The notes under the pieces: model-generated
What the model was told of the DNA's origin: nothing
What the model saw: the letters and a program-made list of their open reading frames with translations, nothing else
Databases searched by the model: none
Shown here: piece after piece, positions 9,675 through 37,043 of the stretch
Numbering within the stretch: position 1 is the stretch's first letter
Layout of the letters: the number at the start of each line of letters is the position of its first letter
Program-made: the position numbers and the translations under genes
Sequence record: OR670491
DNA length: 64,000 nucleotides
Direction: 5' to 3' (one strand)
Origin: Escherichia phage vB_EcoM_JNE01

Positions 9675-12600
9675 TTATACACGTTGAGCAATGAAGGTAT
9701 CAAATACAGTACTGAAACCATCATAAACAACTTGAATGATACTAACTTGGTTCACAACTGAACTTACCTGACCAGATACAACTGCGTATTCAGCAGGGAT
9801 AGTTAGAACAGCATCACTAACAGTTGGTGTTACGTAAATGTATACAGAACACGCTTCACCGCTACCGATTAGACCAGTAATTGGTGCTAGGGTAGTGTTT
9901 TGGTCAAGAGTTAGACGATATACGTTACTAGAACCATCTGGAGTCCATGTACCGGATACAGAAGCGGTAGAAGCTACTACTGAAGTTGGTAGAACAGAGT
10001 ATTTCTTAGTGATTACAGTACTGGTTGTGAAATCAGCATCAGTAGTGTTCAATGCACCAGTCACCGTTAGGGCTTTATCAATCACAACGTTCTCTTTGAA
10101 GGTTGCAGTGCCATTAACAGTGATAGTATCAGCGGCAGCATCACCTAGAACAACATTACCATTAGCGGTTAATGTACCAGTAAAGGTTGCAGAACCAGTT
10201 ACGGCTACACTTGCTAGTGTTGCTAAACCTGTTGTAGTTATGGATGCAGTTGAAATTTCACTTTGAACGCTTAAGTTTTCAGAGAATGTTGCTGCACCTG
10301 TAACGGCTACACCACCATTCAGACTCGCTAGTCCAGTTACTGCAAGGGTAGAGCCGGTTTCTAAACTTCCACCAGTAATTTTACCAGTTGCAGTAATTGT
10401 TGTACCAGCAGAAATTGAAGTCCCCGCATTCACATTGTTGGTTGCAGTTAAAGATTTAACAGCTACATCAGAATCCGCTTGGTTCAATTGTGCGTTTAGT
10501 ACTCCTGTTACTGTGAAGTCACCGTTGGTTACAACGTTACCATTTACGGTTAGGTTGTTGTTTAGTGAACCAGAATCACCAATTGTTGCTGCTTTAGCAA
10601 TCATGGTTGCACCAGAAGTGATGTTACCAACTGCACTAACAGTTGAATCAGCCGCAATTGCGAATGGTTCTAATGTTTGACCGCTTACATCGATATCGGC
10701 GTTAATACCACCATCAACACGTAGTTTACCAGCAATATATGTATCAGGAACAATATGAACTGTTTCTGGTTGAACTGCTAGAGGTGTGCCAACTGTAAAT
10801 GATGTACCAGTTTTCACTGCACCACTTGCGGTTAGATCTGCAACGGTTGTTGCTCCAGTCACACCTAGTGTACCACCAACTGTAGTATTACCAGTAGAAG
10901 ATAAAACTCCTGCCCCGACAGTTCCAGATGCAGTTAATGATGTTGCATTGATGTCTGCTGTTGATATTCCACCACTCAATGTACTCAAACCAGTAACACT
11001 TAAAGTAGTTGATGAAGACAAGCTATTTGCAGAAACATCAGCACCAGTTAGATCCAAACCACCTTGTGGAATCAATGTACCTTCAACTGTTACGTTACCT
11101 TTTGCCACGGTTGCACCAGTTACTTCCAAAGACGCAGCAGTTGCTTTACCAGAGGTAGATAGAGTTGAAACACTTGTTGCACCAGCTTGTACTACACCAA
11201 GAGTTGAGGTTCCAGTAACACCAAGAGTGGTTGTTACGGATGCACTTGATAGGGTACTTGCCCCAGCAGTTAGCCCAGCAAGAGATGTTGTACCAGTTAC
11301 GCCTAGTGTACCACCAACGGTAGTATTACCAGAGATTACAGGAGCACCAGTAATTACCCCAGTTGTTAGTACTAAATCAGCACCAACAGTTGTGTTTCCA
11401 GTACTTGCTAGTGTTGCAGCTTGTAGGTTTGTACCACTTAGGTCAAATGTACCATCAACTGTTAAATTACCTGCAACGTGTGCATTACCAAGAGAGTTAA
11501 GTGACTTAACAGAAACATCAGTAGTGCTTAGATCAATTGCACCAGCAGTTAAAGTACCAGATGCATGGAAATCACCAGTAACATTTGTGGATTTTGAAAT
11601 TTCAACTGTTGCACCAGGAGCCGTGAAGGATGCACCACTAATTGCACCAGTTGCCGCTACAGAACTAGCATCAATTGCAGTTGCAGATACAGCAGCAAGG
11701 GTAGAAGCACCAACAACATCAAGTGAGCCAGAAGCAGAAATATTACTTGTATTAATATTAGCTACAGTACTTTCCCCAGATACATTCAATGTTGTTGCTT
11801 TTGCTGCACCTAATGTACTATCGGTTGAAGATAGTTTAGGGAATGTATTGGTTTTTAATGCATCAGTACTAACAAAACTTAATGCAGATACATCTGCACC
11901 ACTTAAATCAACAGTACCTGCAACAGATAGGTTTCCACCGATAGTAGCACCTTCAGTTGTGGTTATTGAGTTAGAAGTTATGTCAACTGAGCTTAGGTCA
12001 AGACCACCTTGCGGGGTAAAGACACCTGTTACGGTTAGGTCTTTAGCTGCTACTACATTACTAGCAAGATTCAATGTTCCCGCACCAGACGCTCCAGCTT
12101 GAACCGTAGGAGTTGTTACAGAAGTTGAAATTGTAGCAGTTGTAGAAGATAAACGTGAACCAGAAACAACACCAGTACTGGTCAATGTTCCAACTTTTGC
12201 AGCACCAGTAGTTGTGATAGTACCACCAGATACATCACCGGAAGCTACTACAGAAGATGCGTTAACAACACCAAAGGTACTTGGGTTAGTTGCAGTAATA
12301 GATTTTGCAGTTACATCAGCAGAACTAAGATCGATAGCACCAGATACAGCAAGAGAACCACCTACGGTTACGTTTCCAGTAGTAGTTAAAGATGCAGCAC
12401 TTACATCAGTAGTACTTAAATCAATCCCACTTGGAGTTAGTGTTCCAGTGATCGTAACATCATTAGCAAATGTAGTATTCCCACTGATAGTTGGAGCAGT
12501 TAGTGAACCAACAGTCGCAGCACCAGTTACTTCTAAAGAACCAGCAGTTGCTTTACCGGACACACCTAGTGAATTACCTAAAGTAACAGCACCAGTTACA

Positions 12601-14561
12601 CCTAATGTACCACCAACTGTAGCATTACTCACTACATGAAGACCAGTACCAGATGCACCATTTAGTGTTAGATACCCTGCCGATGCTGCACCAGATATAG
12701 TTGCTGAACTTGCATTAACAGCAGCCAATGTGGTTTCACCAGCAACACTTAGTGTTGTTGTTACATCAACTTTATTAGGAGCAATATCAAGGCCATCTAC
12801 GTCGGCTACGGCGGTTACACCAGTTGTGGTTCCAGTTACTACTAGATCCTTAACAGTTACTGTTTGGCCTTGTACGGTTACATTACCATCTAAAATACTA
12901 TCTCCAGTTACACCTAATGTTCCACCAAGAGACGTTCCACCTGTGACTTCTAGATAGCCAGCAGTGGTTTTGCCAGTAGAAGTTAATGTTGTTCCCTGAA
13001 TACCAGACGTTGCAGTTACGGAGTTAGGAGTTAGATCCTGCCCACTAACATCAACAGTTAGGCCAGTAACAGTTCCTGTGAATTCTACATCACCTAGAAC
13101 CGATTTACCAGCAACAGAAAGTTGTGGAGTTCCTGGAGCTTGAGTAGCGTTACCAGCGATTTCTAGATAATCTAGTTTGTTTAGACCTTTACCTGTGATA
13201 CCATATGTTGCTAGTGAAGCATCACCAAAGGTTGCAGTTTTCTGAACAGTTAATGTAGCAGGAGACATTAATTCAGATTGAATTTCGTTCTGTAGAAGAA
13301 CAGTTGGGCGTTGACCAACGGCAGTATAAGCAAAACCAACTTTGGTATCAGCACTTGCAGATGCTGGACCTAGGTTTAGTGCTTTAATATTTGCAGTAGT
13401 GTTAGTACCACTGATATTACCACCTAGAGTTACAGAACCTTCAAGACTAGTTAGGCCAGATACTTTTAGTGTTTGTGCTTCGATATCACCTAAACTGAAT
13501 GTACCACCAAGAACACCACTTACGTTAATGTTATTGAAGTTTGCAGTGCCAGTACTTTCAATATTAGGAATAGTAGCAGAACCAGTTACTTCGAAATCAG
13601 TTACTTTAGTTAAACCTTTAGTAACTTCAAGTAAAGGGGTAGCTGGTGATTGAACTGCGTTACCACTAATAGTTACATAATCTAATTTGTTTAGACCATT
13701 ACCAGTGATACCAAAAGTACTTAAAGATGCATCACCAAAAGTAGCAGACTTAAGAACAGTTAGGGATGCTGGAGACATTAGCTCGGACTGAATTTCGTTT
13801 TGTAGAATTACAGTTGGGCGTTGGCCTGGTGCGGTATAAGTGAAGCTTAAACGGTAAGCACTGCTTGCGGAGTTAGCACCGATTTTGACATCTTTAAATG
13901 TTGCAGTTGTGTTGATACCAGTGATGTTCGCACCTAGAGTAACAGCACCCTGTAGGCTACTTTGACCAGACACAGTTAGGGTAGTTGCGTTTACATCAGA
14001 AAGACTGAATGCACCACCTAGTGTACCACTTATGGTAACATCGTTAAAGCTGGCTGTACCAGTACTATTAATGTCGGTTGCATTTAAAGTTGCAATAGTT
14101 GCTTCGTTTGCAGATAGTTTATCAAATGCAGCAGTAGTTCCTGCGTCAGCATTAATATTACCTTTAAAAGTTGAAATTCCATCAACTGATAGTGAGTCAA
14201 CAGATGTTGCTTTCAAATCAACATTACCAGCAGTTTGACGAATATTACCACCAAATGAAACACCAGAGTTAAAAGTTGCTGCGGAGTTAATTGTAGCAGT
14301 ATCAGTACCTGGTGCTACTGCACCAATCACAGTGCTACCTACCACTTCAACACCACCATTAAGAGATGCTTTACCAGCTACATCTAGGGTAGAAGTGATA
14401 TTAGCAGTTGCTGCTTCAATTGCAGTGAATGTAGCATTTGCAAAAGAAACTGTACCATTTACGGTAAGATTCTTATTGAATACTGCATCACCTTTAACTA
14501 ATAGATCTTTACCGACTACAGCACCACCAGTAATATCTAGATCAGTTTTAATCGAGTACAT
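9675..14561 (-). CDS. giant tail fiber protein B (1628 aa), paralog of fiber A
   Basis: N-terminal ~80 aa and C-terminal ~60 aa nearly identical in pattern to fiber A; two tandem ~170-aa repeats; GGAGGG RBS. Confidence 0.8.
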   Translation of the reverse strand: MYSIKTDLDITGGAVVGKDLLVKGDAVFNKNLTVNGTVSFANATFTAIEAATANITSTLDVAGKASLNGGVEVVGSTVIGAVAPGTDTATINSAATFNSGVSFGGNIRQTAGNVDLKATSVDSLSVDGISTFKGNINADAGTTAAFDKLSANEATIATLNATDINSTGTASFNDVTISGTLGGAFSLSDVNATTLTVSGQSSLQGAVTLGANITGINTTATFKDVKIGANSASSAYRLSFTYTAPGQRPTVILQNEIQSELMSPASLTVLKSATFGDASLSTFGITGNGLNKLDYVTISGNAVQSPATPLLEVTKGLTKVTDFEVTGSATIPNIESTGTANFNNINVSGVLGGTFSLGDIEAQTLKVSGLTSLEGSVTLGGNISGTNTTANIKALNLGPASASADTKVGFAYTAVGQRPTVLLQNEIQSELMSPATLTVQKTATFGDASLATYGITGKGLNKLDYLEIAGNATQAPGTPQLSVAGKSVLGDVEFTGTVTGLTVDVSGQDLTPNSVTATSGIQGTTLTSTGKTTAGYLEVTGGTSLGGTLGVTGDSILDGNVTVQGQTVTVKDLVVTGTTTGVTAVADVDGLDIAPNKVDVTTTLSVAGETTLAAVNASSATISGAASAGYLTLNGASGTGLHVVSNATVGGTLGVTGAVTLGNSLGVSGKATAGSLEVTGAATVGSLTAPTISGNTTFANDVTITGTLTPSGIDLSTTDVSAASLTTTGNVTVGGSLAVSGAIDLSSADVTAKSITATNPSTFGVVNASSVVASGDVSGGTITTTGAAKVGTLTSTGVVSGSRLSSTTATISTSVTTPTVQAGASGAGTLNLASNVVAAKDLTVTGVFTPQGGLDLSSVDITSNSITTTEGATIGGNLSVAGTVDLSGADVSALSFVSTDALKTNTFPKLSSTDSTLGAAKATTLNVSGESTVANINTSNISASGSLDVVGASTLAAVSATAIDASSVAATGAISGASFTAPGATVEISKSTNVTGDFHASGTLTAGAIDLSTTDVSVKSLNSLGNAHVAGNLTVDGTFDLSGTNLQAATLASTGNTTVGADLVLTTGVITGAPVISGNTTVGGTLGVTGTTSLAGLTAGASTLSSASVTTTLGVTGTSTLGVVQAGATSVSTLSTSGKATAASLEVTGATVAKGNVTVEGTLIPQGGLDLTGADVSANSLSSSTTLSVTGLSTLSGGISTADINATSLTASGTVGAGVLSSTGNTTVGGTLGVTGATTVADLTASGAVKTGTSFTVGTPLAVQPETVHIVPDTYIAGKLRVDGGINADIDVSGQTLEPFAIAADSTVSAVGNITSGATMIAKAATIGDSGSLNNNLTVNGNVVTNGDFTVTGVLNAQLNQADSDVAVKSLTATNNVNAGTSISAGTTITATGKITGGSLETGSTLAVTGLASLNGGVAVTGAATFSENLSVQSEISTASITTTGLATLASVAVTGSATFTGTLTANGNVVLGDAAADTITVNGTATFKENVVIDKALTVTGALNTTDADFTTSTVITKKYSVLPTSVVASTASVSGTWTPDGSSNVYRLTLDQNTTLAPITGLIGSGEACSVYIYVTPTVSDAVLTIPAEYAVVSGQVSSVVNQVSIIQVVYDGFSTVFDTFIAQRV
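13060..14066. repeat. two tandem ~505-bp coding repeats inside fiber B, homologous to the fiber A repeats
   Basis: TCTAATTTGTTTAGACC recurs about 505 bp apart (near 13170 and 13680); stretches such as GGAATAGTAGCAGAACCAGTTACTTCGAAATCAGTTACTTTAGTTAAACC are shared with fiber A around 8530-8600. Confidence 0.75.
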
Positions 14562-14612
14562 TTAGTTCCCTCCATTTGAATGATTATAAACATAACCATT
14601 CTCGTTAATATG

Positions 14613-14623
14613 TATATATTTAG
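14613..14623 (-). promoter_or_regulatory. putative late promoter of fiber B (CTAAATATATA)
   Basis: Minus strand AAACTAAATATATACAT about 55 nt upstream of ATG; leader ends in the same AAATGGAGGGAACT RBS block as fiber A. Confidence 0.4.
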
Positions 14624-14633
14624 TTTATGATAT

Positions 14634-14665
14634 AAAAAAACCAGACCTGATACTAAAGGTCTGGT
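14634..14665 (-). terminator. intrinsic terminator after the 298-aa fiber/spike gene
   Basis: CCAGACC-loop-GGTCTGG hairpin followed on minus strand by TTTTTTT. Confidence 0.65.
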
Positions 14666-14673
14666 TATATTTT

Positions 14674-15570
14674 TTATTTACCGGATATTACAACCTTGCC
14701 ACTAAATGCAACATAGGATGTGAATATAACATTACCACTAGCATCAATTTGAGTTTCAGCAGTAACAGCTTCAAAAGGTGCAAGAGCAGTACTGCCTTGT
14801 ACTTTATTACCGTATAGAGAAACGTATAGATTGTCAGGGGTTTGTTTATGATCTGCTGCTGGAATAGTTAGAGTGAATTGATCACCGGAAGCTACCCAAT
14901 CAGCCTGATTAATAAGTTTACTGTATGGTACTGTCATAGTTGTTGCTCCTATAATATTAATTTTAACACTTGCGTATTCTGAAAGCTGACCAACTACTTC
15001 TAGAGTTATATCACCAATACCAGAAACTGTAACGTTAGTTTGGAATACAGAATCCAAATCGACATCACCTGGGTCACCTTGCAATTGAACCATAATATCA
15101 GCACCGCGACCATGAATAGATTCAGGAAGAGTGTATGTATATTTGTCAGATGAACCTGGCTCTAATACAAATGCTGAAACTGGAACAGTATGTGTGGTTA
15201 CATAAGAACTATCACTACCAGGAGTAGATGATTTAAGTGGTTTCCATACACCAAGGTCTTTAATATAAATCTGAAGTGTATTTTCAGCATCAACTAGGAA
15301 ATACACATCACCATCGGTTCCCAATGCATCAGCAGGAGCTACAGTACCGCGAAGAATACCACCAGCACCACCGCCACCATGTGCGTTTAAATATCCCAAG
15401 GTTACCAGATGGGTATTAGCTGTTGGGTCAGCCGCAGAAATTGGAAGAAGACCAGTTCCTGTATAGTTTTGAATTTGCACAACACTACCATTCGTAGTGA
15501 TTTGTGCACCATTTTTACCAAGTATGAAGGTCTTCTTCATGGTTCCTTCTAAATTAGAAAAAACTGCCAT
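14674..15570 (-). CDS. tail fiber/spike protein with conserved N-terminal anchor domain (298 aa)
   Basis: Start moved to the ATG preceded by AAAGGAGATGA RBS (MAVFSNLEGTMKKTFILGKNGAQI...); N-terminal ~110 aa parallel the N-terminus of the adjacent tailspike (VFSNLEGTM..FILGK.GA.I). Confidence 0.7.
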   Translation of the reverse strand: MAVFSNLEGTMKKTFILGKNGAQITTNGSVVQIQNYTGTGLLPISAADPTANTHLVTLGYLNAHGGGGAGGILRGTVAPADALGTDGDVYFLVDAENTLQIYIKDLGVWKPLKSSTPGSDSSYVTTHTVPVSAFVLEPGSSDKYTYTLPESIHGRGADIMVQLQGDPGDVDLDSVFQTNVTVSGIGDITLEVVGQLSEYASVKINIIGATTMTVPYSKLINQADWVASGDQFTLTIPAADHKQTPDNLYVSLYGNKVQGSTALAPFEAVTAETQIDASGNVIFTSYVAFSGKVVISGK

Positions 15571-15584
15571 TTTAATCATCTCCT

Positions 15585-17727
15585 TTATGATAGAGTTATA
15601 TATGTTATTGGCTGTGCCGCTTTTAATAATGCACCTGCTGCTGTAGCAGTTACAATTGGGTCGGCAATGTCAACGCGGTATGCGTTTGATACTACGTAAA
15701 CTGCTCTGGTGATGTATGTTAATAAATCTTCACCATTTGCCCCAGCACCTGTAATGAGTATTTGTGTTCCAGCAGCTTTCGCATATTGGTTATCACCCCA
15801 TGATACGCCTAACGCCTCTATATATGTTTGTCCTACAACCGTTTGTCGTATGGTGTCGTATTTTCCGAAGAAAGAACCACCAACTGTTACAATATATTTA
15901 CTCCCTGACTGGTTGTGAATAATTGTACCTTGTGGGAAATAACGACCACCAGGGAACGTGTCATATGGAACATAATATTGTTCAACTACAGGTATCAGTA
16001 CTGGACCACGGTGACCAGTTCCGTCAATATCAGTTGGTACTTTAAAGTTGTTAGATGATTGGTCAATTCTATCCACATACATTTTAGCAAAACTATATTT
16101 GGATATGTTACAATCATCTTGGACTACACAGTTTGTCCAGTTTGTATATGTATATTTAGAACGGGTATACAAACCACCACCTTCACCTTCTGTTGACAAG
16201 TGTTGACCAATAACATCTAACTCTTTAGTGCGAATATCACTAAACTTAGAAGCTGATGGAAGACCACGCCATTGAATCTTAGTACAAGTTACATTGGATA
16301 ATTCAGTATTGTTTGTCCAGTTATCAGAACAAGATGTATAAACTAAAATAGTTGATTCTGGAATATACAAATTAGATAATTTAAAGTTACGTGGAGGTCC
16401 AGCAAATTTACCAGAAGTTACACCCCAGTTTATAGAAACCATACGTGTAGTTACTGATGCGTCATTTAATAGATGTCCAGTAAGACCATCGACAATAAAG
16501 TCTTTTGAACCATAAGTGATAACACCACAGGTAGTAAGGCCAGTACCAGTCGATACCAATGAGGATGGATATACCTCGTTATCTAAAATTTTAAAATCTT
16601 TACCAACTTCAACGTGAATACACTGACGAACGTTATAAACTCTATTGTTTTTAATAACAAAGTTTTTAACATATTGTGAATCAGGAGCATCAACGTCATA
16701 TGGACCAGAACCCGCTACCCCAATTCCTATACCCCAGTTTGATAATGGGATTGGTGCATTAGTACCGTCAACGTTTTCAATAATATTTCCTTCAATTACA
16801 AAACCATCAGGATAATGAGAGTTGATAACGTTTAGTTCGATTGCATCCCCATAGATATCGTGAATATGGTTATAAGAATAACGCCCTACTGTCATTTTTT
16901 CACCCGTGCCTTGTTGAAGAACTCCATACTTACAAAGAGTCATTTCATTAAAGCAGAAATCAATAGTGCCAGTTTGAGTCATACCTTGCATTAAAAACGC
17001 AGCAGTACTGGTAATGTTTATAAATTTATTAAAATAAAATTTACCATCACCACCAAAGAATTTAAGATAACAACCAGTTAATGTAGCAAATTGTATATGG
17101 CAGTTGATTACAGAAATCATAGTACCGCCGTTACCTGTTATTGTTCCACCAAACCAAGTTATATCTTCCAAGTATAAGGCTGTTTTAATTCTATAATTAC
17201 CTTTACCTTGAACTTGAATTTTATTCTCTTTTGCATATACTGCACAGGCATTTACTGCCGCAGTGTCATCTGTTTCACCATCACCTGCTGCCCCAAACTC
17301 TTCAGGAGTTACATAGAACTGTGCTTGTTGAAGTGTTCCTCCTGTTATCAATCCAATATAATCTCCGTCCGTTAACACTTGACAAAATATCTTTATTAAC
17401 GTATAGTGATTTTACCCATTTACCATCAATTTTTAGAAATATATCAACAATCCCTTCACTGTTAGTTTGGAAATATGTATAATTATTTTTACCGATATCA
17501 TCTGAAGGGATGGCTTCACCAAACATTACGGTTGGGTGATCTTCTAGATACTTAACATTGACAGCAGAATCGGCATCAACCGCAGACCCTACTTTAACTG
17601 GTAGAAATTTTTCACCAAATGAATCCTTTATTGAAATGGAATCATCTGAAAAACTAATCAAGGCTCCTTTTTTACCAAGGATGAATGAGGGCTGCATGGT
17701 TCCTTCTAAATTAGAAAAAACTGACAT
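15585..17727 (-). CDS. tailspike with pectate-lyase-type beta-helix (depolymerase-like); N-terminal anchor domain and enzymatic domain in different frames (apparent +1 frameshift near 17380-17410)
   Basis: ORF 17302..17727 encodes the anchor domain (MSVFSNLEGTMQPSFILGKKGALI...); ORF 15585..17378 (+1 frame, starts only at GTG without RBS, in-frame stop 11 codons upstream) encodes ...EEFGAAGDGETDDTAAVNA..., the classic right-handed beta-helix pectate lyase/tailspike signature. Confidence 0.6.
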
Positions 17728-17741
17728 AATCAATACCCCCG

Positions 17742-18869
17742 TTAGATGTTATCGCTAATTGGTTGTATTGGTGATTGCCATGCCAAAGTACAGATAATTT
17801 TAATTTGACCATAAGCACTGTTGTTTACAGAGTCGTTGAAAATACAAGAGATAATTTCATCTTTATCAGAAACAGTGTGGTTAACTTCGTTAACAATAAA
17901 ACGCATTTTACGGTTAATGTCAAAATAATCAACTGGAGCAATTACAGTACCCCCAATATCTTCTTGTGCTTCACCACCGAAACGAACAAACATTTCGTTA
18001 ACTGGTAAATCATAAGCTTGTTGTACATCAACATCGATATTAGTAACTAGGTATCCAGCAGGACATGTACCAATAACTAGAACGGCGTTAGTCCATGAAT
18101 GATCAATAGTGTTTACAATAACCAAGGAATCTTTACCTGGAGCACCTGTAGCACCTGGTAGACCTTGTTCACCTTGAATACCCTGTTTACCACGGAATTC
18201 AATACCAGTACTCCACTCTTTGGAAGGCGGGGTTGTGGTGTTTACAATATCAACATAGTATAGTTTACCATCTGTGGTATTATAGAAGCAGTAGTCTTCA
18301 GGAAGGTCAGTAATACTAGGGAATACATCACCAGTACTATCAATATGGAATCGTCCACGTAGACCTTGTGGGCCACGGAATTGTACACCATCACTCCAAG
18401 TTGCAGTTACTGATTGATAGAAATAAACTTTACCATCAGTTGTATTATAGAATGTATAGTTGTTTACGAGGTTAGTAGTTGGGAATGTATCACCAGAGCT
18501 ATCAATATGGAATGATTTACCAGCTTCACCAGTATCACCTTTACCAAATTCTACAACGTTCCAAGTACTATTACTGTCAGTTGCGGCGTTGGTTTTGAAA
18601 TATAGCTTACTAGTTCCGTTTGCAAGACTAAGATAGCACCAGCCAAGTTCTTCACCTACTCGGAATGATTCATCTGGGATTTCAAAACCTATCTCGTTTG
18701 GATAAAAGTTTTTACCATTTGTACCATCTCTACCAACAACAAGACCTAGATCTTGAATTGTGTTGTCAGCGTAAGTTACGATCAAATGTCCAGCAGAGTT
18801 GATAACTAAACTCTTTATGCCGGAATTATTGCATGAACTACTAGTCCCATTATTAAATGAAATTGTCAT
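17742..18869 (-). CDS. collagen-like repeat-containing fiber protein (375 aa)
   Basis: Start placed at MTISFNNG (AAAGGAAATAATA RBS) rather than the upstream ORF-track start; contains G-x-y triplet runs GPQGLRG and GKQGIQGEQGLPGATGAPGKD. Confidence 0.6.
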   Translation of the reverse strand: MTISFNNGTSSSCNNSGIKSLVINSAGHLIVTYADNTIQDLGLVVGRDGTNGKNFYPNEIGFEIPDESFRVGEELGWCYLSLANGTSKLYFKTNAATDSNSTWNVVEFGKGDTGEAGKSFHIDSSGDTFPTTNLVNNYTFYNTTDGKVYFYQSVTATWSDGVQFRGPQGLRGRFHIDSTGDVFPSITDLPEDYCFYNTTDGKLYYVDIVNTTTPPSKEWSTGIEFRGKQGIQGEQGLPGATGAPGKDSLVIVNTIDHSWTNAVLVIGTCPAGYLVTNIDVDVQQAYDLPVNEMFVRFGGEAQEDIGGTVIAPVDYFDINRKMRFIVNEVNHTVSDKDEIISCIFNDSVNNSAYGQIKIICTLAWQSPIQPISDNI

Positions 18870-18907
18870 TATTATTTCCTTTTTATAAGTGAATCGTAAT
18901 ATACCAA

Positions 18908-18914
18908 TATTTAT
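18908..18914 (-). promoter_or_regulatory. putative late promoter (ATAAATA) for the collagen-like gene
   Basis: Minus strand CTGATAAATATTGG about 39 nt upstream of ATG. Confidence 0.4.
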
Positions 18915-18941
18915 CAGTACAAAATACATTTCGACATCATT

Positions 18942-18949
18942 AATAAATA
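18942..18949 (+). promoter_or_regulatory. putative late promoter (ATAAATAAAT) for the plus-strand genes 18982-21215
   Basis: TAATAAATAAATG about 32 nt upstream of ATG 18982; divergent from the minus-strand promoter. Confidence 0.4.
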
Positions 18950-18981
18950 AATGAAAGTTCACTACTAAAAAGGGCTTAACA

Positions 18982-19479
18982 ATGGCATTAAGATCAAAAG
19001 ATTTCCTATTCAAGCGTAAAGCTAAAGACGGTTCATGGCAAGAGTTCCCTGAATCTGACAGTTGGTATCCATCAAACCTAGATTATCTCTGGAATGAGCA
19101 AACACTACCTCTTGCAAGTGGTGGTTACTATGGAAGTACAACTGGGTTACATACAATTTCCTTTACCCTGCGTAACTTCATCGGTAGAATTTATGTACTA
19201 GCAACTCTAGCAAGTAACCCGTCAGATGATGATTGGTTCCCTATTAAATTTACCGAAAGCTGCAATTATTATCTTGAATTCACTGATACTGTTATTCTAA
19301 ACCCAAATGGCGGTGATCTTATCAGAGAACAAGGTACAACTGGTACATTTGCTGAAACATTAACTGGTAACTTTACCTATCTCAAAATTGGTATCGACCG
19401 TGACTACATTAGTAAGTACCCTTCTGATGTTCAGAAGAGTTTAGCTGGTAAATTAGAACAAATTTTAATAAACTATTAA
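18982..19479 (+). CDS. hypothetical late protein (165 aa)
   Basis: ORF with AAGGG RBS; no recognisable motif. Confidence 0.5.
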   Translation: MALRSKDFLFKRKAKDGSWQEFPESDSWYPSNLDYLWNEQTLPLASGGYYGSTTGLHTISFTLRNFIGRIYVLATLASNPSDDDWFPIKFTESCNYYLEFTDTVILNPNGGDLIREQGTTGTFAETLTGNFTYLKIGIDRDYISKYPSDVQKSLAGKLEQILINY

Positions 19480-19492
19480 TTAAGGATTAGAA

Positions 19493-20101
19493 ATGAAGTT
19501 TGAAACAGAACAACCAAAACTATTTGTTAAGGGTCATGTACTAATTACTGATGTTACTGATCCAGAACATGAAAAAATTGTTTTAGACAAGTCCAACGCA
19601 ATTCACCCTGAAAATATGAGTACTGCTATTGCGAATGCTCTAGCTTATAACCAAGATAGTACGGGTATTCCTATCGGTTCTATTAGTGAAATGCGTTTTG
19701 GTAATGGTGGTACAGTAGTATTGAGTACTGGTCGCGTTACTTACAAAAAACCACGTGTAACATCGTTTGGTGGCTTGTATTCTGAAACATATTTGAAGAA
19801 AATCAACCCGCGTATCACTGCTGGTATTGATGCACAATACAATAACATTACAACTGTTCACATCCCAGGCCAATCTTATACTGATATCGTTTGTATCTGT
19901 ACTCTAGGTCTAGGTGAACCATCTGACCAAGCAGTTAGTTCCGGTACAAGCATGGATGGAACCTATGTATTTGATGAATTGGGGTTATATACAGATGGTG
20001 ATAGTGGTATTCCACTTACTCACATCATTTTCCACCCAGTTGAGAAAAGTGCTAACCGTGTATTGCAAATTAAATACACTGTACGTGTACAACTTCAATA
20101 A
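19493..20101 (+). CDS. hypothetical late protein (202 aa), probably structural
   Basis: ORF with AAGGA RBS tightly packed after previous gene; Gly/Thr-rich. Confidence 0.5.
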   Translation: MKFETEQPKLFVKGHVLITDVTDPEHEKIVLDKSNAIHPENMSTAIANALAYNQDSTGIPIGSISEMRFGNGGTVVLSTGRVTYKKPRVTSFGGLYSETYLKKINPRITAGIDAQYNNITTVHIPGQSYTDIVCICTLGLGEPSDQAVSSGTSMDGTYVFDELGLYTDGDSGIPLTHIIFHPVEKSANRVLQIKYTVRVQLQ

Positions 20102-20114
20102 TAAGAGGTAGAAT

Positions 20115-21215
20115 ATGAATATTAACTATACAATTTATCGTAGTGATGGTACAGTTTATGCTACCATCCCTAATAACGTAATTCTTGGACCGAATCAACC
20201 TGGTTCGAACCCAGTACCTCTAAACTTGGTCGGTCGTAACAAAGTTGGTTACGGTCAAGCATGGAATGAAAACTTTTTACATTTAGTTGAGCATTTTAGT
20301 GGTAGTGTTGCTCCACGTGGTAACGTTAAAGGTCAAATCTGGTACAGAAACACTGGTGCTACTGGTGAGTTGCTAATTTCTCTTCTTGACAACGCCAGAC
20401 AACCAGAAGATACTGTTACGGAAGCAGAATGGGCTTCTATCCCAATGATTAGTGTTTTTAACACTATTCCTGATGGTGAAAACAGTGTTATGGGACGTAT
20501 GGTTTTAACCAGCAATGGTGATTCCCTCCGTGTCCTAATGAAAAACAAAGAATGGCGTGAAATCCAGACATCCAGACCAGAAAACAAAGAGTACTCAACT
20601 CTTTTAGATATCAACTATGATACTGGTAAGAAATATATCGAATTTACTCAAAGTGCCAGTACTAAACCACTAGCTTACTTTAATATGGGTGGTACTTCTC
20701 AAGTTGACGAGGATAACTGGACTACTTTCACTAATGGTACTGGTGTATTTGAATTTGGTAGCAACTATTTCTACGAATTAAAAATTATGATTCGTGAAGT
20801 AAGTGATGCAACTGGTTCAGTGGTGTCTTTACCATATAATTCCAAAACATTTATGATTAAAGGTCAATTCTATGTTGATAACCAAGGTACATTTGTTCCT
20901 GGTTCAGTTGGTGCAAGCTCTATCCCTGATCCACGTCGAATTACTCAACTAGAATCAATTAAAGACGTTATTACAAGCAGCCGCCCTAACTGGGATGTTA
21001 ATATTGTAATCAACGGTGTAGATTCAACGATTCCTAATCCAAATGGCGTTACTAAAGCTGATTATGAGAACTGGGTAATCAATTCATTGAACTCTAACAA
21101 AAACTTAGGCTTCAGGATTGATGGTTCAATCAGTAATCTGGTTGCTGGGGAATCTGTTAAGCTTCAGGCTTCAGTACTATTGAATATTACTGGTATCCCA
21201 CTAATTGGTGTATAA
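20115..21215 (+). CDS. hypothetical late protein (366 aa), probably tail/fiber-associated
   Basis: ORF with AGAGG RBS; N-terminus IYRSDGTVYATIPNNVILGPNQPGS...LVGRNKVGYGQAWNENF resembles fiber N-terminal regions; followed by terminator. Confidence 0.5.
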   Translation: MNINYTIYRSDGTVYATIPNNVILGPNQPGSNPVPLNLVGRNKVGYGQAWNENFLHLVEHFSGSVAPRGNVKGQIWYRNTGATGELLISLLDNARQPEDTVTEAEWASIPMISVFNTIPDGENSVMGRMVLTSNGDSLRVLMKNKEWREIQTSRPENKEYSTLLDINYDTGKKYIEFTQSASTKPLAYFNMGGTSQVDEDNWTTFTNGTGVFEFGSNYFYELKIMIREVSDATGSVVSLPYNSKTFMIKGQFYVDNQGTFVPGSVGASSIPDPRRITQLESIKDVITSSRPNWDVNIVINGVDSTIPNPNGVTKADYENWVINSLNSNKNLGFRIDGSISNLVAGESVKLQASVLLNITGIPLIGV

Positions 21216-21725: not shown

Positions 21726-23069
21726 TTATTTGTCAGTGAAAGTTATCTTCCAGTATCCTTGACGGTATTGAGACATAATACTATTATGCCATTTGAATTT
21801 GTCATTATAACGATAATAGTGGCTGTCAGTACGGTTGTAAACATAGTTGTGTACTGTTAGCGGATCTATCAATTCAACACCATCATTTGTTATTTTAAAC
21901 AAAGCGTATGCTGGAATTTCTGTATCTTTATAAACGATGCCATGTATAGTGTTATTTACATAATATTGTTCAGGTATAGCGTTATATAATTCAGATGATT
22001 TCGTTACAAATCCAGTCAACGTATAATCAACACGGTAATTAGTGCTGTCAAGTTGGACTACAATCTTATTCGCTTCTGCATCTTCACCATAAGATGTGAT
22101 GACACCCTTAAGCGGATTATCTTCTTCAATTGCTTGTTGGAATTTGATACCAATTTTCTTATTTTTGTATTCAGGTTCCAAATACTCCATGTATTTTTCC
22201 CAAGAATAGATATTTCCACTTGGTGTGATTGGGTTCATAGACTGACTTACTAAAGTAAGAACATAACTATCAGGGATAGAAAGTCTAGAGTCAGTAATTT
22301 CATCAACTTTAATACATAGATTCTTTGGAGTAAACACATCAGTGATTATATCAGTGAAGTTTCCAAATTCCATATCAAATTCATCAATACCACTTTGAAT
22401 ATTCGTTGTGATTTGTTGAATAAGTTTTGGTTTCTCTACAATAGCTGGTAGAGAGAACCAGATTGTTGTTTCAAAAGTTAGAACCATGATATCTAAATCG
22501 GTATCAGTACCCTGTGGGAATCCACGAGTACTGAATTGACAATCGATTAACTCAACATCACTAAGAGAAGTCCAATCCAATGGGTTCTCGGTAAGCTGTA
22601 ACTGAATACTCGGTGCAAACAAAGTTGAGATCTGTTCGAACAATTCCATTTTTGTTTGTGTTTGAGTAACCCAAATATTCAAATCAAACGTAAATGTCCA
22701 AGGCACAGGGTTGTGCCTAGTTACTTTATGTTGCTTATCTAACTTCTTAGTATATTCGTTCTGTGCTGGTGACTCATTAGTACCGAAGATAATAGTTTCA
22801 TTTGCGTTAGAACGAATACTTTTCCTATCCATCTTAAGTTGGTTTACACTAATAGTCATGATTGGTGCTGATGGTAATACGTTTTCACTGTTACCATTGA
22901 TAATAGCAGCAGCCAAACGTGAAATGTCAGCATATCTACATGGAACTTTCTTATATTTCGCCTTCCCTTCACTATCGATTCCGTTCTGAACTTGAAATTC
23001 ACCAAAAACACGAATCAAATGTTTCAGTACTCGACGAAATTGTCCATCATAATAATAATCTACTTTCAT
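21726..23069 (-). CDS. 15: gp15-like tail completion / sheath stabiliser protein (447 aa)
   Basis: N-terminus MKVDYYYDGQFRRVLKHLIRVFGEFQVQ...KYKKVPCRYAD parallels T4 gp15 MFGYFYNSSFRRYATLMGDLFSNIQIKRQ...KFIRVPITYAS (recalled from memory); AAGGA RBS. Confidence 0.55.
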   Translation of the reverse strand: MKVDYYYDGQFRRVLKHLIRVFGEFQVQNGIDSEGKAKYKKVPCRYADISRLAAAIINGNSENVLPSAPIMTISVNQLKMDRKSIRSNANETIIFGTNESPAQNEYTKKLDKQHKVTRHNPVPWTFTFDLNIWVTQTQTKMELFEQISTLFAPSIQLQLTENPLDWTSLSDVELIDCQFSTRGFPQGTDTDLDIMVLTFETTIWFSLPAIVEKPKLIQQITTNIQSGIDEFDMEFGNFTDIITDVFTPKNLCIKVDEITDSRLSIPDSYVLTLVSQSMNPITPSGNIYSWEKYMEYLEPEYKNKKIGIKFQQAIEEDNPLKGVITSYGEDAEANKIVVQLDSTNYRVDYTLTGFVTKSSELYNAIPEQYYVNNTIHGIVYKDTEIPAYALFKITNDGVELIDPLTVHNYVYNRTDSHYYRYNDKFKWHNSIMSQYRQGYWKITFTDK

Positions 23070-24556
23070 TCGCTATCCTTATGTACTCTATATACAATGT
23101 TTGGTTTAACTGCGTCATGCAACGGAACTCTGTTTGGATTATTCACAAACGAAGTTAGTGCTAGGTCTGCACCTTCCCACGGTTTTCTTCCACCATAATC
23201 GAAAATTACCCAAGAATTCTTATCAGCACTGTATTCCCATAGTGTTACTGGTGTGTAATCAGTTCTATAGAAGAATTCCCCATCAGAAACATCAGTTGGG
23301 AACTCAGTTCCTTCACCAACAGTTCCACGAGCCGGAGGAATACGAGGACGATAGTCTTGTTGTGAGTCAATGTTGCCATAAACACTATTAGAAGTGAAAG
23401 CATCATTCACGTAAGTTACTTCTGGTAGCTGCCACTCACCATCTCTGTACTGATAAATGGTAGGAACAACATATTTTATGTAAAAATCATCAACCCCTTG
23501 CGGTGGTGTATCTTCTGTTGTATACTGCACATCACAGTTGAGCCACTTTTTAGAAGATTTGTCGTATTGATAGAGAGAATATCCGGTTATATCAGATTCA
23601 TTCTCTTTAAAGAAGAAATCTCCGTCACTTGGCTTACGTGGGAACAGTGTTCCGTTAATAACTGAAACATCTTCCCATGTGCCATTGACAAGTTCTTTCA
23701 GTACTGGTAAACTCTTCTTCAAGAAATACATTTTATCGGCTGGTTCTCCTGGGAATTCATATCCATTGAGAACAAATTTGGATAAATCCATAGTATCGGG
23801 TCTGTCATCAAATAGATGTTCGTTGGTAAAGTGAATATAAGGTACTTCGTCATCAGCTTGCATAATGATACGGTTCATAATATCCATTTCATTACCGTAG
23901 TTGCTGTTTTCGGAGCCGCCATCTGTGTTACCATTACCATTGTTTGGATCATCTGGGTTATCAGGGTAGTTATTGTTGTCAAGTAGCTCTGAATATTCAG
24001 GTGAATCGGTAAGTGGTTTAACACGGAGTTTAAAAATGTGATGTTGCCATGTAACTGAGTAACCTTCAGATGTTCTAAACGCATCTTGTACTACATAGAA
24101 GCGGTTAAGACCTGAATCTTTACCAATTACATCAAAATCACGAAGGTTAGGAAGTTCAATAACATCGCCTGGCATTATTTTTCTTCCCAAGCGTTGCATC
24201 ATAGTGTTATAATGAACTGTAATATCCATTGTGTTAAAGTTAAAGAACAACCCAGGGATTTTTAAATCAGGAGTTGCTTCTTGGACTTGATAAACACAGC
24301 TAAATGTGATAGCCTCTAAGTTGTAGTTACGATTAGGAGTATCACCAAAAATTAAATCACCAATGCTTGACACGGTGCTATCATTTGTGAGATAATCTCC
24401 ACCGTAAGATAAATCAGTGTTGTCGGCAACTTGTTTTGCCCCAACATACGCGTAGAGCCACATGTCTACGCCGCCGATGTTGTACTGTTCGGCTATGGCA
24501 GAATCAATAAACTGATAGTCTTTGGTTCTACCTTTCTTCCACATTTTATATGCCAT
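23066..24556 (-). CDS. putative neck protein (gp13/gp14 position), 497 aa
   Basis: Start moved to MAYKMWKKG (GGAGA RBS); position immediately upstream of gp15-like gene as in T4 13-14-15 order; no sequence motif confirmed. Confidence 0.4.
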   Translation of the reverse strand: MAYKMWKKGRTKDYQFIDSAIAEQYNIGGVDMWLYAYVGAKQVADNTDLSYGGDYLTNDSTVSSIGDLIFGDTPNRNYNLEAITFSCVYQVQEATPDLKIPGLFFNFNTMDITVHYNTMMQRLGRKIMPGDVIELPNLRDFDVIGKDSGLNRFYVVQDAFRTSEGYSVTWQHHIFKLRVKPLTDSPEYSELLDNNNYPDNPDDPNNGNGNTDGGSENSNYGNEMDIMNRIIMQADDEVPYIHFTNEHLFDDRPDTMDLSKFVLNGYEFPGEPADKMYFLKKSLPVLKELVNGTWEDVSVINGTLFPRKPSDGDFFFKENESDITGYSLYQYDKSSKKWLNCDVQYTTEDTPPQGVDDFYIKYVVPTIYQYRDGEWQLPEVTYVNDAFTSNSVYGNIDSQQDYRPRIPPARGTVGEGTEFPTDVSDGEFFYRTDYTPVTLWEYSADKNSWVIFDYGGRKPWEGADLALTSFVNNPNRVPLHDAVKPNIVYRVHKDSE

Positions 24557-26990: not shown

Positions 26991-29900
26991 ACTAAATTTT
27001 AATAAACGACCTACATCCAATCCACTAATTGTCAAACTGTCTGTATAAACACTCAATTCAATTGGCAAATAGTTCTCACCATATTTCTTGAACTTATCAA
27101 TGTTTCCTAAGTTCATGCCAGTAAATGTATATGTCTCATCTAGTTTGAAATCATGTTCCGCACTGTACATCGCACCACGTAGTAAGTTATTTGCATTACG
27201 TACTTGGACTTTCTCGTAACCCAATGAAATAACATCATTCAGTGAAGCTGCTGCACCCGATAGAACATTATTGGTAACACTGTATGGGCTTACCGATGAA
27301 GGTTGTGAAACATAGGTCATATGTTCATTCTCAATCATCGTAATGCTTGTCACAGTACTACCAACAGCGGTAATATAAGCATTTGATACTAGTGGGTAGT
27401 TATACACCCAAACCCCGTCAGAATTACGTGTAGGTTCTAGTAAACCAGCATCGTATTCAAACACGTTAATCTCAACGCTATCAACCATTCTTGTTCTTAC
27501 TAGTTCACTTAGAACACCAGAACCAGTAATAGGTAGATTATAGCCGTTATCGATTGTAACCCCGTCCACAACGAAAATTTCATTTGACACTAACCATAGG
27601 TCAATATCACTTGAAGTTATTCCGTCATTATATGAACCGTTATCTAATGTCGTGTCATAAAATACTTCGTATTTCATTGCATCAATTGCATAGTTTCGGT
27701 TTTCTTCGTATAATTTAACTCCATTAACAACAAATTCAGGATCTGCGAATGTTCTAATACGAACTAGGTTCAGTGCTAGAGGCATTGCATGTTCACCAGC
27801 TTTGTTAGTAGTGATGTTATCAAACATCAGTACTGCACCAGTTGAATCTAGTAATTCAACAGTACCATTGGCTGTATTATTTCGTACAGTGAATAGTTTA
27901 GGTGTAGTTCCTGTTTTGATTTTAGATACACTCAAGATGGTTTCCCATGTATCGTTTTGGTATCTTACAAAATCCTCACCATCAGTGGTGAAAATCATAA
28001 CTTTATCCCCATTAGCTAATGAATTATCTACTAACTTCATTTGACTTTGAGTTTGCACTGATTTCACTTGATAGAAGTATTTTTCATCATACTTATCTGT
28101 TGTTGCACTAATATCGTTAGATACTTTTGCGTATGAAGGAATACTAATAATTGCTTGTCCATAGTTGTAAGGATTGATTAGAACCATACCTTCAACATGT
28201 AAGCGACTATTGTCACGTAGCTGAACTTGAGCAGCAGTATCAAAGCCATATCCATCAATCGTTACTCTGATTTGACCGATATCACGTTCCGCTGGGTTCA
28301 CATCACGAATATCAATGATATAAGGATCAACCTCATCGTCTTGTACTGACCATTTCATGGTAGCTGTTTGTGATTCTAGTGCTAGGTTATCGAAAGAGTT
28401 CATATCATTATAATATTTCGCACCTTCAATACCGTCTAGTATTTGTTTATAATCAGAATACATTGGATTGTTAACATCTTGCGGTAAATCATCCAAATTG
28501 ATTTCAGCTAAACTTACAGCCTGACCAGTTGTGATGTAGATATCTTCGATGAAATCGTCAATACTTTGATTACGTGGAATACTAACAAACGTATCATTTA
28601 CTTTAGCATATACATATTTTCTAGGAATCATAGTGAATGCATAGTTTTGTACAGAATTATTACTTAGTACTTCTTCGGCAATTTCATAATTATTGGAAGC
28701 ATCCTTGTTAAACAAGTTACGCATACCAGTTAATACATGAACTGCGTCGGTGTAATATCTTCTTACTTCAATTACAACTTCTTCACCATCTTCATCTTGA
28801 ATTGTTTGTTCTTCCATGAACTTATACATGTAAACGCCGTATTCAACTTCTAGCTCAATTCTAACTTCCTCGTCACTGAACGCAGGATTTGCAGTTTTAA
28901 TCAAATCAACATATTTCTTATACAATTCACTGGATACTTCATAATAACCTAAGTTATAATCAGTACTGCTTGCGAAACCAAACGGTAGACGAGTGCTTGG
29001 GTTGTCAGTGAAGGTCACTCCACTAAAACCACATCCAACTTCATCATGAATAACTTCATTACTAGCACCAGTGTACAGCTTCAATCGGTTAGAAAGAGTG
29101 TTGTACTGAACATAATGTTTAACATCGTCAAACACTTCGTTATTTGTCGCTTCTGCATAAATGCGGTGAAGATTTTGGGTAAATTCTTCAGTTAGTGCTA
29201 AGTTATCAGAATTTTCTTTATACCAATCGTTAATTGCTTTAGCAGCACCCATTGTAATATTCATACTTGGATATAGAATTTGCATTTGGTATGCAACTTG
29301 TAAATCTAAAGTTTCTGAATTATTTTCAGGGAAGGTATAAATGAATCTTTGTAACTCAAAATCACTGACTACATCTTTTTCGTTACTTTGATACTTGTTG
29401 TTAACTGCATTTAGTACATCTAGGCTTGCCAAATCTTCATTTGGTTTACACTGAATGTTGTCATAATGCATAATCACATCAATTTCTTGGAAACGTCTAT
29501 TTGGTGTTACAAAATCGCTTGGCAATGAACCAATTTGTTCCCATCTCTGAGTAACATCACTAAACTGTGCGTATTCATAGTCCCAAATATCTTTTTCAGT
29601 TTTAACCCAAGAACCATCAACAAGAATATAGCCATTTGGATCGAGGTCGTTGCATAATCCTTTGATAACATCATCATCTGATGTTTTCTGTTCAATCTGA
29701 GAACGAATCTTAGTTCTGTACGGTTTAACTTCTTCAAAGTACTCGACAATTTGATTAATCAAGTTATCGTTTGAATAGTTCTGTACAAGAGATTGCTCTA
29801 GACCAATAATATAAATGTAAGATGTTTTGAATACCCAGTCCACAACACCCTGTTCAACGTGAACATACTTAACCATATCAAATACTATTGTACTTTGATG

Positions 29901-36998: not shown

Positions 36999-37032
36999 TG
37001 TTGGACTCCATATAATTCGTTCATTCATTTGA

Positions 37033-37043
37033 TTTATTTATGA
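37033..37043 (-). promoter_or_regulatory. putative late promoter (CATAAATAAAT) for the giant protein gene
   Basis: Minus strand TATCATAAATAAATCAA about 37 nt upstream of the RBS-supported ATG at 36998. Confidence 0.45.

Follow-up and report, generated by a model that had tools for sequence, protein, structure and literature searches.

A composite N-terminal module shared by two genes of jumbo coliphage JNE01, one of them a colanidase tailspike gene split by a single base

Two adjacent minus-strand genes of Escherichia phage vB_EcoM_JNE01 (sequence record OR670491) begin with the same composite module of ~105 residues and continue into unrelated distal domains, and one of them, a colanidase tailspike gene, is split in two by a single inserted base. 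Both lie in a stretch of 64,000 nucleotides (nt) that was analysed as a whole (the window; all positions are those of the window unless another record is named). The module opens a virion protein of 298 amino acids (aa) encoded at 14674..15570 (301-aa version to 15579) and, in the gene upstream of it, precedes a beta-helix body of the phi92 gp150 type. An extra C at 17367 divides that upstream gene into a 141-aa open reading frame (ORF; 17302..17727) holding the module and a 588/597-aa ORF (15585-17351/17378) holding the body. The jumbo coliphage JNE01 was obtained on E. coli O157:H7 as host and has been published as a genome announcement only (PMC10868205); the window is affiliated with Asteriusvirus, a group of RaK2-like jumbo coliphages.

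The best overall explanation, held with moderate confidence, is that the 5' ends of the two genes are paralogous, each encoding a clade-specific module that would consist of an almost invariant N-terminal peptide of ~20 residues, a small beta/helix domain (residues 1-65 together with the peptide) and one fibre repeat. The 298-aa protein would be the ancestral, universally conserved carrier of the module, and in Asteriusvirus a second copy would have been joined to a colanic-acid hydrolase beta-helix of the phi92 gp150 type. The module is predicted to trimerise and to dock its carrier at a baseplate or short-fibre site built by conserved neighbour products, so that a spike degrading exopolysaccharide and a conserved structural fibre would stand side by side on the virion. 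In the JNE01-like lineage the 1-nt insertion would have uncoupled the halves into an anchor-only 141-aa protein and an anchor-less colanidase; the latter would most likely be translated from a start of its own (TTG 17351 or GTG 17378) and act as a free enzyme, not as a virion spike.

A module shared by two N-termini

BLASTP alignment of the 298/301-aa ORF with the ORF starting at 17727 gave 37/109 identities (34%) with E=3e-19, far above chance, and the motifs VFSNLEGTM..FILGK.GA.I and LKI.G.W are found in both proteins. An earlier sequence-only reading of the window had quoted these motifs and proposed that two receptor-binding proteins share one N-terminal anchor; the pairwise alignment of the N-termini is significant and bears out the similarity, and the distal domains are indeed unrelated, one being a phi92 gp150-type beta-helix and the other two immunoglobulin-like (Ig-like) beta-sandwiches. 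The module itself stands as that reading described it, with its length revised from ~110 aa to ~105 residues of composite build. Searched with tblastn against the whole window, either module copy finds its partner at E~6e-18 and nothing else better than E=1.4, and separate family hidden Markov models (HMMs) of residues 1-65 and 66-112 matched these two ORFs and no others among all six-frame ORFs; neither approach found a third copy in the window. The E=1.4 match, in the neighbouring gene for a collagen-like protein, was rejected as a third copy, its hhalign comparison with the 298-aa family giving a probability of 0.9%. Across all phage records, tblastn found two module copies per genome in Asteriusvirus and one per genome in RaK2/K64-1, CBB, GAP32 and related Serratia, Erwinia, Yersinia, Salmonella and Xanthomonas jumbo phages.

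Conservation within the module peaks in its first 22 residues, of which 18 are identical between the paralogues. Both monomer models give the first ~10 residues a low predicted local distance difference test score (pLDDT), as expected of a docking peptide. Over their opening 33 nt (17695-17727 and 15538-15570, minus strand; ATG.CA GTT TTT TCT AAT TTA GAA GGA ACC ATG) the two genes are identical at 32 of 33 positions, every synonymous position included, while the rest of the module has just ~35-55% nucleotide identity; in phage G17 the corresponding nucleotides match at 30/33 positions. Such near-identity could stem from gene conversion, from a constraint acting on the region where translation starts, or from codon bias in the coding of an invariant peptide.

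With a profile built from the two module copies, 221 matches in two classes were obtained among 1.84 billion representative proteins. Positions 1-65 (MA.FSN..GTM...F.LGK.G ... P....DAVT..Y) were matched at extreme N-termini only, in carriers of 99-1366 aa that include the 285-300-aa family, the Asteriusvirus colanidases and, from uncultured relatives, BNR-propeller fibres of 1218-1366 aa, a 705-aa Beta_helix protein and a pectate-lyase-like spike of 780 aa that bears a Peptidase_S74 chaperone. Positions 66-112 (G..P....G..GD.Y........Y.K....W) were matched as internal repeats, up to 14 per protein and often alternating with collagen GXY runs, and residues 66-105 are one copy of this widespread fibre repeat of ~40-45 residues. 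Pfam has neither half, and sequence searches of the PDB matched neither. In cultured phages the N-terminal domain is restricted to the RaK2-like jumbo clade, save for one weak and partial match (residues 16-62, E=1e-3) in SCTP-2, a jumbo phage of Salicola. Scans of viral_contigs and metagenome_contigs for two uncultured carriers (P0125 and P0138) gave just unrelated loci sharing the C-terminal chaperone, and a word-indexed search with the N-terminal domain alignment returned five short proteins only; one of these is encoded close to the terminase of a ~44-kb phage and gave no useful context.

The alcyoneusviruses RaK2 and K64-1 have the module as a complete, stand-alone ORF of 115 aa (RaK2 ORF061, L005 4001-4348; K64-1 gp067, L003 14001-14348) that ends just after ...GIWKPL; a gap of 165 nt follows, and then an unrelated 510-aa structural protein (ORF060/gp066). 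Since it exists in these phages as a protein of its own, the module is more than something appended to a receptor binder. The presence of residues 1-65 before very different bodies is the pattern expected of a virion-attachment domain, and this wider distribution strengthens the reading of a shared attachment module. A doubtful but serious alternative is that the module serves chiefly to trimerise or nucleate fibres and not to anchor its carriers to a common adapter; the two proteins would then share it as trimeric fibres and attach otherwise or at different places. In favour of this, BFVD matches include many collagen-like proteins, and the second half, which recurs internally in hundreds of proteins, often between collagen GXY runs, is no N-terminal anchor as such. 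The first half, however, occurs only at the extreme N-terminus of its carriers, its first ~20 residues are the most conserved segment, and a pure folding nucleus would be useless without a fibre, whereas RaK2 and K64-1 keep the 115-aa version alone.

The 298-aa protein has 78 homologues of 284-300 aa with 36-78% identity, nearly all at 100% coverage, and an invariant C-terminus (FSGK[VI]VISGK). It matches phrog_10468 (E=5.5e-89; the family includes CBB_227 and 121Q gp572), and the CBB orthologue, CBB_227, was detected in virions by mass spectrometry (PMC5259590). Its module occupies residues 1-~112 (about 15235-15570) and is followed by two Ig-like sandwiches, modelled with a pLDDT of 83 and with generic structural neighbours only. 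Judged by this conservation, the 298-aa protein is a core virion protein across RaK2-like jumbo phages and not a variable, swapped receptor binder. Its description in the sequence-only reading as a receptor-binding protein with a swapped distal domain is contradicted by the full-length conservation of this family and by the invariant C-terminus.

A literature search found no paper describing the shared module or the split, and neither is discussed in the fEgEco12 and phAPEC6 papers. The comparison defines a previously undescribed N-terminal module of RaK2-like jumbo phages and the place where foreign enzyme bodies were grafted onto it.

The colanidase body and the one-base split

The body (15585..17366, minus strand; 593 codons and a stop, in the +1 frame relative to the module) matches phi92 gp150 (PDB 6E0V) in phmmer with E=5e-235 over residues 4-592, aligned to residues 39-623, and the intact protein of phage Turkey5 matches the same structure with E=1e-239. 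It also matches phrog_6117 'colanic acid degradation' (E=1e-253), and PF27800 WcaM is found on the 588-aa product. According to the citing passage in PMC13450770, gp150 was established by experiment as a colanic-acid hydrolase (Xu et al. 2025, as cited there). On this homology, the product annotated in these phages as 'colanic acid biosynthesis/degradation protein' is a gp150-type colanidase spike. The gp150 homology starts at tailspike residue ~100-106, equivalent to gp150 residue ~14-20, which puts the point where the module was joined to the gp150-like neck at about residue 105. The position of this junction is of practical use for engineering jumbo coliphages, be it their host range or the display of depolymerases.

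The tailspike module copy (17368..17727, delimited by BLASTP and the profile search and modelled by AF2 with a pLDDT of 83) comprises the N-terminal domain (residues 1-65), the fibre repeat (66-105) and the start of the gp150-like neck (106-120), and the frameshift lies 15 codons past the junction of module and body. The span 17727..15585 measures 2143 nt, no multiple of 3. Alignment with Turkey5 places the extra base precisely, the window reading AAC GGA C GGA GAT where Turkey5 reads AAC GGA GGA GAT; the C at 17367 creates CGGA-CGGA and the 0-frame codons CGG AGA. The short ORF consists of codons 1-120 of the module copy and 21 out-of-frame codons that end in a TGA stop, and equals JNE01 protein WOL22755.1 (P0001). 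Residues 11-597 of the 597-aa ORF that begins at the GTG equal residues 2-588 of JNE01 protein WOL22754.1, the difference lying at the initiator of the TTG start, and the 298-aa protein too is identical to its annotated JNE01 counterpart. What the sequence-only reading had taken as one 'depolymerase tailspike' is thus homologous in its body to a known tailspike, and the extra C makes it two ORFs in the window. In Turkey5 the gene is single and encodes 713 aa (715 aa from an upstream in-frame TTG), and the ORF is continuous in G17, phAPEC6 and the 121Q type as well.

The 141-aa product is indexed in 55 blocks of a public collection, from which 23 contigs were read and nine non-redundant loci (L007-L015) obtained, representing different ENA, SRA and DRA samples. 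All nine have the 141-aa and 588-aa arrangement with the extra C, which brings the count to 10/10 JNE01-like sequences with the window; among the JNE01-like sequences compared, only Turkey5 lacks the base. No further alleles turned up when viral_contigs and genome_contigs were scanned for exact matches to either junction, split or intact, or when complete E. coli genomes were searched with megablast. A sequencing or assembly error in a gene that is really intact might be suspected from Turkey5, which is 99.8% identical and lacks the C. The same base nevertheless stands in the JNE01 GenBank genome and in at least 23 contigs independently assembled from ENA, SRA and DRA samples, the short ORF exists in five protein variants, all of 141 aa, and the site is no homopolymer; error is rejected on this recurrence as extremely improbable.

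In all other Asteriusvirus tailspikes the site is read in a single frame as NGGD[FY]IGL, and the insertion is therefore the derived state. Carriers of the split differ at many flanking sites, and Turkey5, with its intact gene, is nested among them and has flank haplotypes in common with some. The carrier L010, a metagenomic relative, has a diverged, clearly recombinant body (synonymous divergence, dS, 0.22; ratio of non-synonymous to synonymous divergence, dN/dS, 0.03) behind an identical module. Its divergence of ~5-6% (equivalent to 14300-17124) covers the body, the 298-aa gene and the fibre start, with ~100 substitutions mostly at third codon positions, while its collagen-like gene and module are identical to those of the window; recombination has made it a mosaic, the breakpoint lying between 17304 and 17124. 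A weak sigma-70-like match (TTGTCA, 16-nt spacer, GATTAT; 9/12) spans the insertion at 17358-17385 on the minus strand, the extra C lengthening the spacer from 15 to 16 nt. It is probably a chance match, because the region has 15 such matches against 20 in shuffled controls.

Fate of the separated halves

With L010 set aside, the split carriers are polymorphic in the body ORF at 9 synonymous sites and 1 non-synonymous site, and with it at 82 and 11; compared with a neutral expectation of 77% non-synonymous sites, the bias has p=1.4e-5. The neighbouring, intact 298-aa gene shows the same 9:1 synonymous ratio, and no second lesion was found in any of the 10 split-carrying sequences. These alignments argue that the enzyme half is still translated and useful, and the JNE01-lineage colanidase, genetically uncoupled from its anchor, yet looks selectively constrained. 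Two candidate starts are available to it, the TTG at 17351, 11 nt after GGAG and picked by gene callers, and the GTG at 17378.

Alternatively the tailspike may be a pseudogene in JNE01, a dispensable accessory gene that has been inactivated, with the enzyme half unmade and only the 298-aa protein working as a carrier. The lesion is a plain 1-nt insertion outside any slippery run, the start context of the body is weak, and JNE01, an isolated phage forming plaques (PMC10868205), does so with the split allele. The colanidase gene is also disrupted elsewhere: in vB_Ec-M-J it forms two coding sequences of 351 and 360 aa (L002 7251-9393), in CMSTMSU (H49) it is recovered as three tblastn pieces, and in Salmonella phage SD-1_S14 (P0015) as a 73-aa fragment; these interrupted records suggest either recurrent loss or poor assemblies. 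Inactivation would not by itself account for the lack of a second lesion in ten sequences, for body variation as strongly synonymous as that of the intact neighbour gene, or for the several flanking haplotypes spanned by carriers among which intact Turkey5 is nested, which indicate that the allele is no very recent accident. We regard the pseudogene as possible but clearly the less probable outcome.

Recoding might instead bridge the split, some ribosomes making a full-length spike of 712/713 aa (~78 kDa). One route would be a +4 hop in which peptidyl-tRNA-Gly leaves one GGA and lands on the next, four bases downstream, giving the junction peptide …SSVNG-DYIGL…; the other would be a +1 shift at rare 0-frame codons (CGG AGA, later AGG AGG) before the TGA at 17302-17304, giving …SSVNGRRLYWIDNR-GTLQQ…. 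The site resembles those of T4 gene 60 and E. coli prfB in that the body lies in the +1 frame, identical GGA codons flank the skipped base and the 0 frame holds rare arginine codons. The bypass in T4 gene 60 uses GGA for both take-off and landing, and the insertion in JNE01 falls exactly between two GGA codons that could serve as such a matched pair; the 0-frame continuation opens with CGG AGA and contains AGG AGG, codons rare in E. coli, and tandem AGG reportedly provokes +1 shifts. The allele is moreover widespread and its body still constrained. The resemblance ends there, however: in GTT AAC GGA CGG AGA the take-off codon is followed by CGG and not by a stop, and the prfB-like CUU-UGA with an upstream Shine-Dalgarno sequence is absent, as is any known stimulatory element. 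The rare codons result incidentally from the glycine codons GGA GGA of the body itself, the matched GGA pair follows trivially from the insertion, and independent initiation accounts for the same facts more simply. The window contains no tRNA gene able to read the rare arginine codons, nor any other tRNA gene. Recoding is accordingly judged quite improbable.

The split could also be a maintained functional arrangement in which the 141-aa protein fills the docking site, as the 115-aa ORF061 would in RaK2, the colanidase is released free at lysis and a small fraction of full-length spike is possibly recoded, so that gain or loss of one base (JNE01-like against Turkey5) would switch the enzyme between virion-bound and diffusible modes. 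We think this unlikely. If such functional uncoupling were true, it would be a natural example of a single-base switch between a virion-bound and a free depolymerase.

The favoured explanation, a docking module whose colanidase has become a free enzyme in the JNE01-like lineage, has several observations weighing against it. The synonymous bias could partly come from recombination with intact alleles, and L010 is a mosaic of which L011 shares three sites. Neither start is strong, the TTG lying 11 nt after GGAG and the GTG lacking a Shine-Dalgarno sequence. The breaks at other positions in other phages mean that the colanidase is probably dispensable under laboratory conditions. Between Asteriusvirus sublineages (window 15585-17727 against P0008, 121Q type) the module is 67% identical, and the neck and enzyme body are 88% identical; in these sequences a module less conserved than its enzyme body is the reverse of the usual conserved anchor and variable tip.

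Gene order and comparison with known systems

The two module genes belong to a minus-strand unit of three genes that opens with the gene for the collagen-like 'tail protein' (17742..18869; 375 aa in the ORF list, starting MTISFNNG...; phrog_13565 'tail protein', E=4e-210), continues with the tailspike gene and the 298-aa gene, and ends at a terminator-like hairpin followed by a T-run (14639..14666). A terminator is annotated at the equivalent place in G17. Every relative examined has the collagen-like gene immediately ahead of the module gene, and the colanidase is an Asteriusvirus-only insertion between the collagen-like and 298-aa genes. Three conserved structural genes of 165, 202 and 366 aa (18982..21215, plus strand; phrog_13657, phrog_11259 and phrog_14394) diverge from this unit. 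The order throughout the clade is gp15-like sheath stabiliser, NUDIX, the three structural genes (other strand), collagen-like gene, module gene and long fibre, and synteny of the 18982..21215 genes is kept in RaK2, K64-1, CBB and G17. In megablast of positions 14000-19100 against GenBank phages, Turkey5 is 99.8% identical and other Asteriusvirus (121Q, PBECO4, G17, phAPEC6 and others) are ~77-79% identical.

Orthologues of the collagen-like protein, CBB_228 and phAPEC6 gp253, were detected by virion mass spectrometry (CBB: PMC5259590), and published mass spectrometry likewise detected orthologues of the 165-, 202- and 366-aa proteins in CBB and phAPEC6 virions. The collagen-like protein is a candidate docking partner, and the products of the 18982..21215 genes are candidate baseplate partners with a putative role. 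In phAPEC6 (MK817115; L024 3501-5642 and 5659-6555) the intact 713-aa colanidase ORF and the 298-aa ORF are both unannotated, the record jumping from gp253 to gp256, and therefore neither could appear in its published virion proteome.

Several other features of the window were recorded. The collagen-like protein contains two units of ~45 residues (F[HR]IDS.GD.FP....L...Y.FYNTTDGK.Y) before its G-X-Y run, and a 496-aa structural protein (23066-24556, minus strand) contains several 'DG[DE]FF...Y.....W' motifs; these motifs resemble distant kin of the second half of the module, a kinship not confirmed by the family HMM, nor by hhalign for the collagen-like protein. A 1628-aa homologue of the 'long tail fiber proximal subunit' (9675-14561, minus strand; phrog_4549) is T/S/G/A/V-rich and highly repetitive with internal duplications, and the repetitive gene gives rise to many long spurious plus-strand ORFs at 9838-14565 (e.g. 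438 aa at 10786-12102). The six-frame listing also contains an open frame of ~3,350 codons at 26991-37037 (minus strand), probably the counterpart of the 382-kDa phAPEC6 virion protein gp245.

The sequence-only reading had inferred a branched, multivalent adhesin system in which several receptor-binding proteins attach to one adapter, and had pointed to the collagen-like gene and the genes at 18982-21215 as places to look for that adapter. The shared anchor with different distal domains holds, while an extensive branched array does not, only two proteins per genome carrying the module. No adapter was identified among the neighbours: searches of the collagen-like, 202-aa and 366-aa proteins against Pfam, PHROGs and PDB sequences gave only 'structural/tail protein' labels and nothing more informative, the 202-aa and 366-aa proteins having no PDB sequence homologue, and searches of the 165-aa protein against Pfam and PHROGs ended likewise. 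A branched multivalent system on one adapter is thus not established from these sequences.

Such systems are known from CBA120 (TSP1-4) and from RaK2 (gp526-gp534; PMC10253068), which belongs to the same jumbo-phage supergroup as JNE01, and the likeness is that several tail proteins are built on related N-terminal domains with different distal, often depolymerase, domains. Those complexes use D1/D2 head domains and T4 gp10-like XD domains, whereas no T4 gp10-like XD branching domains or CBA120-type D1/D2 head domains were detected in the JNE01 window (Pfam search included), and JNE01 has two module proteins only, one of them a conserved, non-enzymatic core protein. The RaK2 adsorption study leaves out the orthologous locus ORF060-062 (PMC10253068). 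Within that locus, RaK2 ORF061 and its K64-1 counterpart gp067 ('virion structural protein') have the same complete module in the same slot after the collagen-like tail gene; they carry no distal domain and in this resemble the 141-aa ORF of JNE01, which arose by a different route. A second comparison is offered by the KP32 gp37/gp38-type pairs of receptor-binding proteins (RBPs) of Klebsiella podophages, in which a short, highly conserved N-terminal peptide reportedly docks the secondary RBP to the virion (PMC13352976, PMC6872550). The JNE01 element differs from those pairs in being a folded module of ~105 residues in a jumbo myovirus, with no branching-domain primary RBP identified; its first ~20 residues are likewise the most conserved and of low confidence when modelled in isolation.

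The closest known relative of the enzyme half is the phi92 gp150 tailspike (6E0V/6E0W), to which the neck and the whole beta-helix body are homologous over ~590-613 aligned residues. In gp150 just ~13-20 residues precede the shared neck where the jumbo-phage protein has its ~105-residue module, and the gene in the JNE01 window is split. Apart from that widespread split near a domain boundary, the case is one of ordinary phage tail-protein modularity, built on a module that had not been described.

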